A program made the translations under genes and the position numbers. Below are positions 3,351 to 63,902 of a stretch of DNA of 64,000 bases, in pieces. The notes below the pieces were generated by a model that made no database searches, was not told the origin of the DNA, and saw only the letters and a program-made list of their open reading frames with translations. Origin of the DNA: a virus. Lineage: Duplodnaviria > Caudoviricetes. The DNA is taken from the IMG/VR virus record IMGVR_UViG_3300025316_001101; one strand, written 5' to 3'. Every line of letters starts with the position of its first letter. The stretch's first letter is position 1.

Positions 3351-3932
3351 TCAATCGCCTTGTGGTAGCACCGTATTTGGGAAAGCACGACCCAGTGCAT
3401 CACTCAACTCATCTATTTTACTACGCAAACTACTGATTGTAGACTCTACTTTTTTGTCGCCCTTACCTTCTCCGTCCAACGCTGCTATTTTGTCTTGCAG
3501 TCCATGCAATTTAATTTTCATCTCGGCCAATTCTTGAATTTGTTCTGGAGTGAATGTAACTCCCAACGGACCCGGTTCCATAGCCTGATCTTGCCCCACC
3601 GAAGCTGCCCGAATAGGGTTTGGTGATTGCGACATTGCTTTAGCGGTAGCCGCTGCTTGCTTTGCACTGTCTATTTTATTCTCATGCAATACAACATCTG
3701 GAGCGTCCCCAGCATTGCGAGACATATCATAGACTGTATTCCAATATTGAACATCGGCATCTTTAATGTCTTCGGTTGGGTGGGTATTGGCTGGACCGAA
3801 ATAACTCACATCTGCCGTTTGGCATGGAGTTGTCCTTTGTTTAGGTGCATCATCAAATGTTCCATTTGACATTGCTTTTTCCCACTTATCACACCATGTA
3901 TCAAACTGATCTTTCTGTGCTTCTATACTCAT
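3351..3932 (-). CDS. hypothetical protein, C-terminal coiled coil
   Basis: 193-aa ORF with GAGG SD and an upstream CTAAATA motif. Confidence 0.7.
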   Translation of the reverse strand: MSIEAQKDQFDTWCDKWEKAMSNGTFDDAPKQRTTPCQTADVSYFGPANTHPTEDIKDADVQYWNTVYDMSRNAGDAPDVVLHENKIDSAKQAAATAKAMSQSPNPIRAASVGQDQAMEPGPLGVTFTPEQIQELAEMKIKLHGLQDKIAALDGEGKGDKKVESTISSLRSKIDELSDALGRAFPNTVLPQGD

Positions 3933-13839: not shown

Positions 13840-13852
13840 CCAGAAATTTTAG

Positions 13853-14203
13853 TGGAGGCGGGCGTAATCGAAACGCCGTCCAGAGGTACTCTTGCTCCGA
13901 CCTCTACGTGTGTAGTTTGTTGTATTTATCTCATCGCATTGAACTACAGCTAACAAAAGCTCAAATTGACCAGCGACTTTTTTCTTGTTTTGATTCTTGT
14001 CGCCCGTACCAAAACATACCGACTATTACGGCGAGACTTCGGACTTCATCGGTTGGAATTCCTTGTCTCGGCTGCCCAATCTCTTAGGCCGCAACTGCAA
14101 AAGTGTTTGCAATTAGGTTTTGGTCTGCTTTTAACGTGGCCTGCTGACCAACCACGACACGCCATCTGAGTTCGACTTACCCTGTCGAAACCTTGTCGCC
14201 CCC
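13853..14203 (-). ncRNA. ssrA: tmRNA (one-piece), tag peptide ANTFAVAA*
   Basis: 5' GGGGGCGACAAGGTTTCGAC; acceptor GGGGGCG/CGCCTCC with G3-U wobble and A discriminator; T-arm GGCGT-TTCGATT-ACGCC; tag frame GCA AAC ACT TTT GCA GTT GCG GCC TAA at 14110-14084. CCA is not encoded. Confidence 0.95.
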
Positions 14204-33766: not shown

Positions 33767-34999
33767 TTACCCCGCCCCTAAAGAGGGCGGGGCTTCCGTT
33801 CCAACTAACAGCCCATCTTTGACGGGTCTTATGTCAGGACAAACGGCTAATCCTCGATTCCAGCGAGGAGTTATACCTTCATTGTGAATATTGGTGGCAG
33901 CATTTTCATCCCTATCGTGATTAGTCCAACAATTCCAACAAGTCCATTCTCTATCTTCAAGAGTCAAGTCCTTGTTTTGCCAACCACATACAGAGCATAA
34001 TTGCGAAGATGGAAACCATTTATCCACCTGTCGCAACTCACGACCATACCATTCACATTTGTATTTTAGTTTTTGAATGAACGAAGAAAATGAGGCATCA
34101 TTTTGTTTCCTATGATACGCTCGTTCTCTCCATCGTTCAATTTTCCTAATTTCAGGATCAGCGTTCTTGAGCATATCCTTGACCGACAATGTTTCTAAAA
34201 CAATGACTTGGTTTTCGTTCACTATTTTAGTGCTAACTTTGTGCTGGAAGTCCTCACGAATGTTCCTGATGCGTTGCTCTAACTGGTTTAGTTTGAGATA
34301 CGCTTCTGTCCTACCTTTGCTTTCTTTTTCAGTTCTATTCTTTGCTTTCTTCAAAAACTTCAACCGATTGGAATATTTGGTTCTCGGCAATGGGTTTTTG
34401 TATTTTGTTCCATCGCTACCAACAATAGCACTAACATTTAAGTCAATACCGATGGTTTTATTTGTTGGTTTTAGTTTAGGAATGTCTCGGCTAGTCGTAA
34501 TGCTGATGAAATATTGTCCCGCTTTGTTCTTACTTACCGTAGCAAACTCAATCTCGCCTTCTAATGGTCGGTGAAGCAGAATACGGATGCCTTCCTTGAA
34601 CTTTGGAAAACTTACTTTGTTGCCTTCCACTTTGATGTTTTGTTGGACACGGAATGATTGTTTGCCGTGTTTCTTCTTGAAACGAGGAAATCCCTTTTTG
34701 CCTTTCTTTTGTTTTTTGATGTTGTTGAAGAAATTATCGTATGCGTTTTGTAAGCATCGGGCAGAGTATTGTAATGGTTGGCTTGATGGTTCTTTGAGCC
34801 AAGGTAGTTCTTTCTTCATTTCGGGAAGCGAAGTGGCATTGTCATAATAGTTGAGCGTCTTACCTTCACTTTGATAGGCGGTCATACGTCCAGCAAGCCA
34901 ATGATTATACAGAAACCTTACACAACCGAAATGCTTATTTAGTAGCACTTCCTGTTCAGATGTTGGTTCTAATCTGTATTTGTAAGAAACTAAACTCAC
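33767..34999 (-). CDS. tnpB: TnpB RNA-guided endonuclease, catalytic triad intact
   Basis: N-terminal YKYRLEPT..Q..LLNKHFGCVRFLYN; RuvC-I GID, RuvC-II VLE, Zn finger CSVC...CWNC, RuvC-III HDRDENAATNI. Confidence 0.95.
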   Translation of the reverse strand: MSLVSYKYRLEPTSEQEVLLNKHFGCVRFLYNHWLAGRMTAYQSEGKTLNYYDNATSLPEMKKELPWLKEPSSQPLQYSARCLQNAYDNFFNNIKKQKKGKKGFPRFKKKHGKQSFRVQQNIKVEGNKVSFPKFKEGIRILLHRPLEGEIEFATVSKNKAGQYFISITTSRDIPKLKPTNKTIGIDLNVSAIVGSDGTKYKNPLPRTKYSNRLKFLKKAKNRTEKESKGRTEAYLKLNQLEQRIRNIREDFQHKVSTKIVNENQVIVLETLSVKDMLKNADPEIRKIERWRERAYHRKQNDASFSSFIQKLKYKCEWYGRELRQVDKWFPSSQLCSVCGWQNKDLTLEDREWTCWNCWTNHDRDENAATNIHNEGITPRWNRGLAVCPDIRPVKDGLLVGTEAPPSLGAG

Positions 35000-35160
35000 T
35001 TGTCTCCTGATTGTTTGATATAATCACGAATGAAATCACGCAATGCTTCCGACATTGTTTTGTAGTTCTTGACGCACGCCAACTGAAACTTGTGCATCAG
35101 TGTAGGTTGTATCAAGATGGTTAGGTGCTTCGTGGCTTTTTCTTTGTCTATGTTTTCCAT
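34996..35160 (-). CDS. ribbon-helix-helix (CopG/Arc-like) protein, 54 aa, missed by the ORF track
   Basis: MENIDKEKATKHLTILIQPTLMHKFQLACVKNYKTMSEALRDFIRDYIKQSGDK*; its TGA overlaps the tnpB GTG start. Confidence 0.8.
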   Translation of the reverse strand: MENIDKEKATKHLTILIQPTLMHKFQLACVKNYKTMSEALRDFIRDYIKQSGDK

Positions 35161-58548: not shown

Positions 58549-58581
58549 AAAAGGCCGTCAAGAAATCTTCTTGACGGCCTT
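58549..58581 (-). terminator. hairpin terminator
   Basis: AAGGCCGTCAAGAA..TTCTTGACGGCCTT. Confidence 0.8.
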
Positions 58582-58604
58582 CGTTTCAACTGGAGGTATC
58601 GCTA

Positions 58605-62084: not shown

Positions 62085-62705
62085 CTATTTTTCTATAAGT
62101 CCCACCCCATATCGGCTTTTAACTTTTACAGGCTCACACTTATGAACCTTGCAAAAATCATAAAAAATTTCACGGGCGGGCTGGTGCTTATCAATATAGT
62201 CCATAACCACCAATCCACCTAAACTTATATGAGGCCAAATTAAATCTAAAAGCAAACGATGTTCTTCATAAGACACTTCTTCATTAATGACGGCCAAGTC
62301 CCATGTATTTGCCCGAAGTAATCCCAAGAAAGAATCATCTGTCACATTACCCACGTATACATGAATCTTTTTATGAAAATGATCCATGACATTCTTAGTT
62401 CCTAAGCGTGGGGAATAAAACTCTTCGTCCTTGTGTTGGAAGGCTAGAAAATTATCTACTGTATGGCAACCTCTGAAAAAACAGCTAGAAAATAGACCCA
62501 ACCGAAAACCAAAATCCAGCATAGTCTTTGGCTGTATATGTTTGCCTAAATAGTAATAGAACGGAATATAGCGATGATCTACATACGGCGCAGATTTGCG
62601 AGAATCTTCATCAATTACTCTGCATGTTGAAAGTAACGTAGATGCGCTAATGGTCTGACGGTCAAGCTCTTTGTCGAGCGTGGCCCCTAATGTTTTTACG
62701 TCCAA
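62085..62705 (-). CDS. class I SAM-methyltransferase-like protein
   Basis: MLDFGFRLG, WDLAVI, GGLVVMDY. Confidence 0.6.
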   Translation of the reverse strand: MDVKTLGATLDKELDRQTISASTLLSTCRVIDEDSRKSAPYVDHRYIPFYYYLGKHIQPKTMLDFGFRLGLFSSCFFRGCHTVDNFLAFQHKDEEFYSPRLGTKNVMDHFHKKIHVYVGNVTDDSFLGLLRANTWDLAVINEEVSYEEHRLLLDLIWPHISLGGLVVMDYIDKHQPAREIFYDFCKVHKCEPVKVKSRYGVGLIEK

Positions 62706-62830
62706 TTTACTAACCCTTCTAAAATAAAAGTCTCGCCCCTAACGCCCATTTGTTGACGGAAGAGGACTTGAGGCGAGAGTATTCAACCAGTTTCCTGGGT
62801 AATACACACCTGTTTATAGTCCAGTGTTAT

Positions 62831-63136
62831 CTATGCAAGATTATTAATTTTTTCGCATTCTGGCTTGAGAGGACGCCATGTACAACGATTTTCCCAGGCA
62901 CTTCCTTGAGATGCTGTTAATCGCATGGTTATAGTTGTTTCATTTGTACGATGATAAGTGCGACCGTCTGAACCGATTCTTTCCCGAGGGATTGGCTTTC
63001 CATCGCCTGCATAAAAAAATTCAATGATCGGTGGCACGCTGGTATCAATACAGTCCTCGTATTCACGGCCATCTTTGCCTTTGCACATTAGGTGTTTACA
63101 ACCATCTTTATCTACGTATGCTTTAGTTTCTTGCAT
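62831..63136 (-). CDS. hypothetical protein
   Basis: 101-aa ORF. Confidence 0.55.
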   Translation of the reverse strand: MQETKAYVDKDGCKHLMCKGKDGREYEDCIDTSVPPIIEFFYAGDGKPIPRERIGSDGRTYHRTNETTITMRLTASQGSAWENRCTWRPLKPECEKINNLA

Positions 63137-63641
63137 TTACCCACTCCTTAATCTGACATGCCAAATCTGCCAGGGAGTACACCACTTTAAGGCCCGGACG
63201 CTCTAAAGATAATTGAATTTCAACGTCCAGTCGCCGGGGATAATTGGCGTCCACGCCAACAAATATTGGCTTTGGCTCTACGTCAATTTTCAAAGAATCA
63301 TTAGCAAACGGCTTAATGGCCGGTTTGTGCGGAGTAGACCATCTTCCAAGTTCAAAAAGTGTAATTGGTTGAATAGTATCTTTAGTAAACCAAAAACTTA
63401 TAGCATCCGCCAATTTCAAGTGTTTCCACTCCCATCCAATTTGATCCACTGCTGCACTGGGATCGTTAATTGGAAAATCGGCACGACGAGGATTAAACAA
63501 TATCAAATTGATAACGTCTTCTAACTTAGATCGCATTTCTGCTTGCCAATCTTCACATCCATTAATACCTCCAGCTAAAAATAACCACTTTTCATGAGGG
63601 CTCTTACTCAACCGGGTATCTAACGCTTCTACATATTGCAT
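63123..63641 (-). CDS. nucleoside 2-deoxyribosyltransferase-like protein (second family)
   Basis: FLAGGI.GC.DWQ, NPRR, QI.WE..HL..AD.I.FWF, QPITLFELG; GGAG SD. Confidence 0.85.
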   Translation of the reverse strand: MQYVEALDTRLSKSPHEKWLFLAGGINGCEDWQAEMRSKLEDVINLILFNPRRADFPINDPSAAVDQIGWEWKHLKLADAISFWFTKDTIQPITLFELGRWSTPHKPAIKPFANDSLKIDVEPKPIFVGVDANYPRRLDVEIQLSLERPGLKVVYSLADLACQIKEWVNARN

Positions 63642-63662
63642 GTCATTCTCCAATTTTTATAT

Positions 63663-63704
63663 AAAAAAAGAGGTATCTATAAAAACAATTTATAGCACCT
63701 CTTT
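63663..63704 (-). terminator. terminator closing the candidate ncRNA
   Basis: AGAGGTGCTATAAA-TTGT-TTTTATAGATACCTCT followed by TTTTTT. Confidence 0.75.
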
Positions 63705-63873
63705 GCAGGTATTCGGGATTTTATCCCTATCGGATTTCCGCTCAAGTTGTGACACTAAGTATCATTCAACTTCCATGCAAGCGTCTTTCCTATTGCAAGG
63801 GGCTAATGGCTCATCCGCATGGGCAGTACCATTTTAGCCTAATCTTACAATTTGAAGATTGAACCTTACCTGC
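63705..63873 (-). ncRNA. candidate structured ncRNA, about 170 nt, multi-stem with possible pseudoknot
   Basis: Closing stem GCAGGUA/UACCUGC; hairpins AAUCUU/AAGAUU, GGCUAA..UGG/CCAUUAGCC, AAGUUG..UGAUAC/GUGUCA.CAACUU, CGG/CCG and GGGAU/AUCCC; TAAATA motif 5 nt upstream; terminator directly downstream. Confidence 0.6.
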
Positions 63874-63902
63874 TACTGTATTTACTCCTTTAATTTCAAA
63901 AA

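Follow-up and report, generated by a model that had tools for sequence, protein, structure and literature searches.

A putative new family of pseudoknotted RNA at the border between the replication and capsid genes of huge phages

Introduction

What does a huge phage encode in a 265-nucleotide (nt) intergenic gap that lies between its replication genes and its capsid genes and appears to hold no protein gene on the strand of its neighbours? The gap occurs in the IMG/VR virus record IMGVR_UViG_3300025316_001101, and the stretch analysed here, called the window throughout, covers 64,000 nt of that record, namely the minus strand of bases 35025–99024 of a 259-kilobase (kb) sequence estimated to be about half complete. 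The phage is found mainly in freshwater metagenomes (the sequencing runs that contain it are DNA metagenomes, mostly of freshwater or lake water) and encodes a gp23-like capsid gene, a DnaB-like helicase and a transfer-messenger RNA (tmRNA). Upstream of the gap is a gene for a protein of 164 amino acids (aa), which follows the helicase gene, and downstream is a 172-aa nucleoside-2-deoxyribosyltransferase (NDT)-like gene (PF15891). A sequence-only reading of the window had proposed that the minus strand of this gap carries a stand-alone gene for a structured non-coding RNA of an undescribed class. Orphan structured RNAs of phages are an already known kind, and the questions are therefore whether this one is real, whether it belongs to a known family and how it might act. 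As set out below, comparison of homologues gives good support to a conserved, pseudoknotted RNA of a new family, with at least 19 genomes carrying it at the same spot.

Results

The gap encodes a pseudoknotted four-way junction followed by a terminator

The RNA gene and all of its parts described here are on the minus strand. The sequence features from which the gene had been proposed are all present where the sequence-only reading placed them. A promoter-like box, TAAATA (63879–63884), read directly, lies 5 nt before the first base of helix P1, whose 5′ strand GCAGGUA (63867–63873) pairs with the 3′ strand UACCUGC (63705–63711). P1 closes a core of 169 nt (63705–63873), a four-way junction with a pseudoknot, on which covariance-model hits score 153 and 142 bits. 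The core is followed by an intrinsic terminator, T1 (63663–63704), recognised directly and by folding, with a stem of 16 base pairs (bp) and then seven uridines. The predicted transcript would thus be about 210 nt long, with about 170 nt of core plus the terminator. The 230-nt stretch has a folding energy of −72.8 kcal/mol compared with a shuffle mean of −47.3 (z −5.18), and none of 200 shuffles folded as well. As had been claimed, the minus strand of the gap offers no credible open reading frame (ORF): none reaches 40 aa, and the sole ORF, of 65 aa, runs along the opposite strand.

From 5′ to 3′, the core consists of P1, the junction strand J1/2 (63852–63866; consensus GGUYCAAUCUUCA), a long arm P2-P3-P3b capped by loop L3 (63792–63851), a strand of about 20 nt, the hairpin P4 (63745–63771), the strand J4/6 (63744–63728; about 16 nt), the hairpin P6 (63727–63715) and the 3′ strand of P1. 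In the long arm, P2 pairs 63851–63844 with 63799–63792 (8 bp), P3 pairs 63839–63835 with 63805–63801 and P3b pairs 63832–63828 with 63810–63806, which leaves 63827–63811 as the apical loop L3. The pseudoknot joins CCAUGC inside L3 (63817–63822) to GCAUGG in the strand between P2 and P4 (63773–63778). P4 is built from a lower stem, P4a, a bulge of two purines (63766–63765) and an upper stem, P4b.

The fold covaries among homologues

The homologues described in the next section allowed the fold to be examined by covariation. In alignment A6, which holds 18 sequences and, being fitted to the covariance model, favours the modelled helices, 85.4% of the cells form standard pairs, compared with 60.0% in 500 shuffles and 34–43% when the partners are slid. 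The covariation score in this alignment is 0.632, compared with 0.205 in the shuffles (none of the 500 as high) and at most 0.16 with partners slid, and 40 of the 43 pairs change on both sides.

P1 is 6–7 bp long, with 92.6% of its cells paired and all six modelled pairs changing on both sides. The same holds for all modelled pairs of P2 and for four of the five in P3b, which also contains a U-A pair that is invariant in 18 of 18 members; P3 is aligned more poorly than P2 and P3b and is missing in two members (L056 and L057). P4 has 96.8% of its cells paired and 9 of its 11 pairs changing on both sides, and it also covaries in the plain MAFFT alignment A4. The first pair of P4b is an invariant U-A, and a U.G pair in the same stem is retained in 17 of the 18 members. 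P6 covaries as well, appearing as GGGA/UCCC, GAGA/UCUC, AGGAC/GUCCU or GGGC/GCCC.

Evidence that is independent of the search model comes from the pseudoknot, which lies outside it. L3 is 14–17 nt long, and the 3′ part of the strand that follows the long arm pairs with it. Despite the absence of this pairing from the model, 92.6% of its cells are paired and six of six pairs change on both sides, with variants that include CUGUGC/GCACAG, CCAUAC/GUAUGG, CCGUGC/GCACGG and UCUGCAA/UUGCAGA. Furthermore, the pseudoknot, P4 and P6 are also chosen by RNAalifold on a plain MAFFT alignment. The pairing CCAUGC/GCAUGG, put forward as a potential pseudoknot from a single sequence, is thus borne out. The number of arms was overestimated: five or six hairpins do appear in the single-sequence fold, but only three arms (P2-P3-P3b, P4 and P6) are conserved in the 18 homologues; the remaining small hairpins, such as CGG/CCG in the window's J4/6, are not.

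Outside the confirmed helices, the best-conserved stretch is J1/2, a strand of about 15 nt with the near-invariant word AUCUUCA. Its terminal UUC may, tentatively, pair with a GGA just 3′ of P2. As far as the sequences go, J1/2 could also pair with the P4 bulge or the 5′ strand of P6, but these pairings show no real covariation and were left out of the structure.

The transcript is itself a prediction, which leaves some room for a chance fold or for an element that acts as DNA, such as an origin or a protein-binding site. Such an explanation would have to account for the compensatory changes in nearly all pairs, for the conservation of position and orientation across 19 genomes and for the strand-specific G.U pairs. 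Read from the other strand, the conserved U.G pairs would turn into C.A mismatches, and the minus-strand transcript is therefore taken as the functional molecule. A replication origin was also considered and rejected, as the minimum of the cumulative GC skew lies 10–15 kb from the RNA. We regard a chance fold or DNA element as scarcely credible. Together, the observations give good support to a real, conserved and pseudoknotted RNA that would constitute a new family.

Homologues occupy the same position in at least 19 huge-phage genomes

Relatives of the RNA were found through the gene upstream of it. A blastn search with the RNA and 5 kb of flank gave no match among 50,697 GenBank phages, and scans of viral and metagenome contigs with conserved DNA words gave nearly all chance matches, the real ones being one contig (L002) and a near-identical copy of the phage (L047). 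A search that started from the NDT-like protein downstream gave no relatives. The 164-aa gene (L001:988–1482; G000 34628–35122) lies just upstream of the window's end, has no Pfam family and only a weak PHROG hit, and is found in at least 55 huge-phage contigs, always after the DnaB-like helicase gene, so that its product is a conserved protein of the replication module. Fourteen protein relatives of this gene led to contigs L049–L057, and in all eight of the contigs examined from this set a homologous RNA follows the gene, either directly or behind one small ORF. An IMG/VR scan with an alignment of the 164-aa protein then gave 55 further loci, and covariance models from two rounds (R1 and R2) place the RNA in nine of them (L063, L065, L067, L069, L078, L086, L088, L089 and L090). 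Altogether, homologues are present in 18 other huge-phage contigs; nine members in all were recognised by eye and the remainder through the covariance models.

The members differ widely in base composition, with GC contents of 22–69%. Every genome checked has one copy of the RNA, always between the replication and capsid modules. A divergent member is present in LR756511.1, an uncultured phage of 595 kb (L115:9488–9684), where the model scores only 16 bits. Of the family's features, the TAAATA box, J1/2, P2, P3b, the pseudoknot, the bulged P4 and the terminator can be recognised there, but a clear P1 cannot, and the family therefore extends past what the present model detects. A hand-written descriptor based on P4 and the pseudoknot gave no convincing additional members.

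The RNA is by no means universal among the relatives of these phages. It was not found in five whole related virus records, nor in the gaps of 11 related loci searched without filters. The 164-aa protein had a single hit in the prokaryote genome collections, on a 271-kb contig (L121, CAYVOK010000001.1) without the RNA in a metagenome-assembled genome labelled Acidimicrobiaceae; the contig is probably that of a huge phage, and as a hint to the host its label is at best weak. In a tree of the 164-aa protein, the RNA-bearing loci fall in both deep halves, so that at least seven gains or losses are needed, and RNA-free loci occur as close relatives of RNA-bearing ones (L094 beside L088, and L064 beside L065 and L078). 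Flanks were searched over 2.5 kb, and some apparent absences may therefore be relocations. This spread in the tree, with the RNA-free relatives, makes the RNA look old in the lineage, often lost and dispensable.

One contig, L051, has a run of N inside the RNA (3620–3640), with a copy of the RNA's 3′ half on either side; the two copies differ slightly, probably as a result of strain mixing in metagenome assembly.

The RNA matches no known family

The proposal of an undescribed class was examined with Rfam 15 (4227 models), which was run on the whole window at the gathering threshold and on the RNA region and 11 other member loci at E values up to 10. At the gathering threshold the window returned only the tmRNA elsewhere in the window, and nothing was found over the RNA in the 11 other loci, so that no match exists in the 12 members and the class stands as undescribed in this catalogue. 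The only weak hit at the RNA is to CRISPR-DR60 (63717–63753, plus strand), with 26.7 bits compared with a gathering score of 45. As this hit is on the opposite strand, in the window only and absent in the 11 other members, it is attributed to chance, and a CRISPR repeat or an RNA anti-CRISPR mimic was rejected. We also found no description of this RNA in the literature, and no short words common to the RNA and the rest of the genome beyond chance.

Other candidates were tried by name and rejected. The 5S ribosomal RNA model (RF00001) finds nothing in the phage genome at E values up to 10 and matches 14 of 14 control genomes. By eye, L3 of some members resembles what we take to be loop C of 5S RNA, and this likeness is not supported, since L3 covaries with its partner instead of being fixed. 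A link to Y RNAs and their partner Ro60 is not supported. A TROVE (Ro60) gene is present in this genome, but three other records with the RNA, including one of 320 kb, lack it; these records are fragments, so that the absence is weak evidence. There is also no match in Rfam, which presumably carries families of Y RNA-like RNAs. The stable T4 RNAs rnaC and rnaD (species 1 and 2) are, like the present RNA, small structured RNAs of a phage with a gp23-type capsid to which no function is assigned, but they lie in a tRNA cluster and are processed from it. The unfiltered family model, run over the 8-kb tRNA region of T4, gave a best score of 10 bits, and not at rnaC or rnaD.

A box and a terminator are kept while the next gene varies

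Is the RNA a gene of its own or the leader of the gene that follows? About 16 of 18 members have a TAnATA box (TAAATA, TATATA or TAGATA) at a distance of 4–7 nt upstream of P1; the box resembles what we take to be the T4 late promoter, TATAAATA. In four contigs an ORF of 54–58 aa, absent from the window, is found between the 164-aa gene and the RNA (L002:3520–3696, L053:4537–4713, L054:4548–4724 and L055:2013–2177). Its last codons overlap the TAAATA box in L053, L054 and L055, and in L002 the end of the ORF is a TAGATA-like word, which lies about 35 nt ahead of the RNA. The evidence from the box is weaker in these members because the box coincides with the last codons; in the other members it is non-coding. 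At the other end, 18 of 18 members have a hairpin immediately after P1, with folding energies of −11 to −25 kcal/mol and, in most, a run of uridines.

Downstream genes do not form one coherent functional class. The first is PF15891 in the window and in L049; in L050 a 242-aa protein comes first and PF15891 second; DUF1937/DUF4406 follows in L002, L053 and L054, a 104-aa protein in L055, and NADAR and then Macro in L056; a 72-aa protein is also among the first downstream genes. In L057, L065, L078, L086 and L090, the gene for a 206-aa protein and the gp23 gene follow directly. The ancestral layout was likely helicase, 164-aa gene, RNA, 206-aa gene and gp23, with accessory genes inserted later after the terminator.

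A riboswitch is the familiar explanation for a structured core directly upstream of an intrinsic terminator. The core would be the aptamer and would set termination at T1, thereby controlling genes of nucleotide metabolism such as the NDT-like gene. Indeed, the window and L049 have the order aptamer, terminator, ribosome-binding site and gene, and a gene related to nucleotides or ADP-ribose is within the first two downstream genes in the window, L049, L050, L002, L053, L054 and L056 (PF15891, DUF1937/DUF4406 or NADAR, among which are two different NDT-clan families). The RNA is also reminiscent of SAM-I-type aptamers, which, as we understand them, share a P1-closed four-way junction, an apical loop pairing with a junction strand, conserved junction nucleotides and a downstream terminator. 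However, the terminator's 5′ arm pairs no better with the 3′ part of the core than shuffled arms do (mean z −0.02, 18 members), and P1 and the terminator do not overlap, which makes a classical attenuation riboswitch unlikely. Furthermore, many members have an unrelated gene downstream, which in five is directly the 206-aa gene of the capsid module, the promoter box abuts P1, the partner of the pseudoknot lies between different helices from those in SAM-I, and no Rfam riboswitch class matches. Since box and terminator are kept, the next gene varies and no antiterminator pairing is present, we read the RNA as a stand-alone gene and consider a riboswitch very improbable.

The space between T1 and the hairpin E2 described below is a hot spot for accessory genes (window 62831–63653; L002:3962–4907; L053:4986–5899; L055:2419–3375; L056:4723–6966). 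It holds PF15891 NDT-like, DUF1937/DUF4406, NADAR, Macro and RNase T-like exonuclease genes, among others, and two NDT-clan families that cannot be aligned by BLASTP occupy the same position in it. By its gene content, the slot looks like an island for counter-defence or nucleotide metabolism, and it may help to locate counter-defence genes in these phages.

A second hairpin precedes the capsid operon only in genomes with the RNA

A second element, E2, is located ahead of the capsid genes. In the window it is a minus-strand hairpin with a run of uridines (62721–62778). The 206-aa gene, which is followed by the gp23-like capsid gene, starts 15–25 nt further on (at 62705 in the window). E2 recurs at L002:4961, L053:5951, L055:3440, L056:6980, L065:4255, L078:3250, L086:3753 and L090:3739. 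E2 is about 48 nt long and has a 9-bp covarying outer stem, an invariant internal loop with AA opposite G(A/U)UA and a 4-bp inner stem that contains an invariant G-C and an invariant U.G pair; the words UCAAGU and GCG(A/U)UAGG are invariant. In a plain MAFFT alignment (A8), 99% of the cells are paired, and covariation is 0.61 compared with 0.25 in shuffles. E2 has no Rfam match; it might act as an attenuator, as a site of processing or as an operator for a protein.

Of 19 loci with the RNA, 9 also have E2; among 48 related loci that lack the RNA, none does. It lies 10–70 nt past T1 in L065, L078, L086 and L090, and elsewhere accessory genes intervene. The co-occurrence could result from linked loss by a single deletion or from a functional link. 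Antisense pairing between the large RNA and E2 yielded no site common to three or more genomes.

Discussion

How might the RNA act? Its invariant positions lie in the junction strands, in the bulged helix P4 and on either side of the pseudoknot, and the helix sequences drift, which suggests that the RNA acts through its shape, by binding a specific partner. The explanation we favour, to which we give about an even chance, is that a separate RNA species of about 210 nt is made and acts in trans, its shape allowing it to bind that partner. The TAnATA box would place the 5′ end at or beside P1, and the intrinsic terminator would end the product. The core itself, as the comparison shows, folds into a compact junction of P1, P2-P3-P3b, P4 and P6, in which a pseudoknot of 6–8 bp holds the end of the long arm against the strand that follows that arm on its 3′ side. 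The partner would most likely be a protein of the phage or the host, and a small ligand would be less likely. The RNA appears to act neither by antisense pairing nor by switching its own terminator. Late expression, which the sequence-only reading supposed, would be a further prediction, and a role as an anti-defence decoy or a ribozyme, which that reading mentioned for other phage RNAs, is speculative.

Several points weigh against a free-standing binder. The ends, the timing and the existence of the transcript are predicted from the DNA, and no gene co-occurs strictly with the RNA as a candidate for its binding partner. TAAATA is not enriched genome-wide, and the conserved position of the box is the one feature that points, weakly, to a promoter. 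Furthermore, in L049 the next gene begins about 20 nt past the run of uridines, with room for a ribosome-binding site and none for a TAnATA box; in the window the next gene is at a similar distance, and its one TAnATA box (TATATA at 63663) coincides in part with the end of the run. Some read-through of T1 therefore seems needed in both, which fits a role in cis better. Finally, the strict co-occurrence with E2 hints at control of the late operon, which a free-standing binder alone does not explain.

These last points are in line with the main rival, namely a leader that acts in cis like HK022 put or Bacillus EAR. The nascent core would stay with the polymerase and allow it to continue past T1, across the accessory genes and past E2 into the capsid operon. 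We take put and EAR to be folded RNAs close to the promoter, ahead of terminators and a long late or structural operon, with no alternative hairpin. The RNA here is always upstream of and co-oriented with the 206-aa and gp23-like late genes, abuts a promoter-like box and is followed by strong terminator-like hairpins without an antiterminator alternative, as a processive mechanism predicts. The spacing in L049 and the window and the restriction of E2 to genomes with the RNA also speak for this rival, as do L086 and L090, where E2 is within about 10 nt of T1, and L090 in particular, whose T1 has no clean run of uridines. On the other hand, HK022 put is about 70 nt long with two hairpins, whereas the RNA is 169 nt long with a junction and a pseudoknot, and separate downstream promoters seem present in several members. 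The 206-aa gene has its own TAGATA box in L057, and a TAnATA box lies past T1 and just upstream of E2, ahead of the 206-aa gene, in L065, L078 and the window (TAGATA at 62833); polymerases that start at such boxes would never carry the RNA. L057 has the RNA and lacks E2, and linked loss by a single deletion would explain the co-occurrence, with an ancestral spacing of only 10–70 nt. There is no Rfam match of any kind either, and Rfam may hold models for EAR or put. Taken together, we judge such a leader rather unlikely, though it is the alternative to be taken most seriously.

The exclusive co-occurrence of the RNA and E2 points to a possible RNA-based control of late genes, and the two elements might form a module of a previously unknown kind for controlling the capsid operon, in which the folded RNA, alone or with a protein, lets polymerases or ribosomes pass the E2 leader. 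This idea is more doubtful still; if true, the module would time the switch from replication to head assembly. We rate it equally with the idea that the core represents a new class of ribozyme or ligand-binding RNA.

A ribozyme in the narrower sense, cleaving itself or acting on another RNA with the junction nucleotides and the conserved U.G pair as its active site, would be consistent with the size of the RNA, its compact pseudoknotted junction, its invariant unpaired positions and the wobble pair, all of which recall catalytic RNAs in general. It is improbable: the RNA matches no Rfam ribozyme family, shows no association with repeats, introns or processing sites and has a promoter and terminator of its own, an unusual setting for a self-cleaver.

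The loop-strand pairing could also, in principle, form between molecules, as in a packaging or oligomerising RNA of the type of phi29 pRNA or the GOLLD and ROOL cages. The latter, and other orphan ornate RNAs, are conserved, intricately folded, phage-linked RNAs known from metagenomes, and large phage-associated RNAs form homo-oligomers (PMC12286853). Like phi29 pRNA, the present RNA is a phage-encoded structured RNA of about 170 nt in its own transcription unit, with a conserved complementarity of 6–8 bp that involves a hairpin loop, and it lies beside the capsid module. However, its sequence and fold are unrelated to those of pRNA, no Rfam hit is obtained (a pRNA model being, we presume, part of Rfam), and linkers of 12–15 nt are compatible with an intramolecular pseudoknot. 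GOLLD and ROOL are three to five times larger, usually lie near tRNA genes and are in Rfam, which gives no match here. Unlike the phi29-like podophages, the hosts of the RNA are huge phages with a gp23-like, T4-type capsid, in which replication genes are followed by the capsid module, and the terminases of T4-like phages are not known to need an RNA. A packaging or oligomerising role is therefore highly unlikely.

Huge phages are known to carry tRNAs, tmRNA and, in this genome, Y RNAs, and the RNA described here adds to these a well-supported class of compact fold that has no catalogued relative and is placed exactly at the border between replication and capsid genes. Its fold is defined by P1 with three arms, by the covariation of the pseudoknot and by invariant bases in the junction, which makes it suited to direct experiments.

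Two further observations concern the RNAs and transcripts of this phage group more generally. The tmRNA of the phage is encoded on the minus strand at window positions 13850–14203 (Rfam score 140.9 bits), and ARAGORN gives its tag peptide as ANTFAVAA. The terminators, both in the window (63663–63704 and 58550–58582) and in the family members, have purine-rich 5′ upper stems (for example, CAAGA) and loops that contain YGU across very different GC contents, which may reflect a lineage-wide style.

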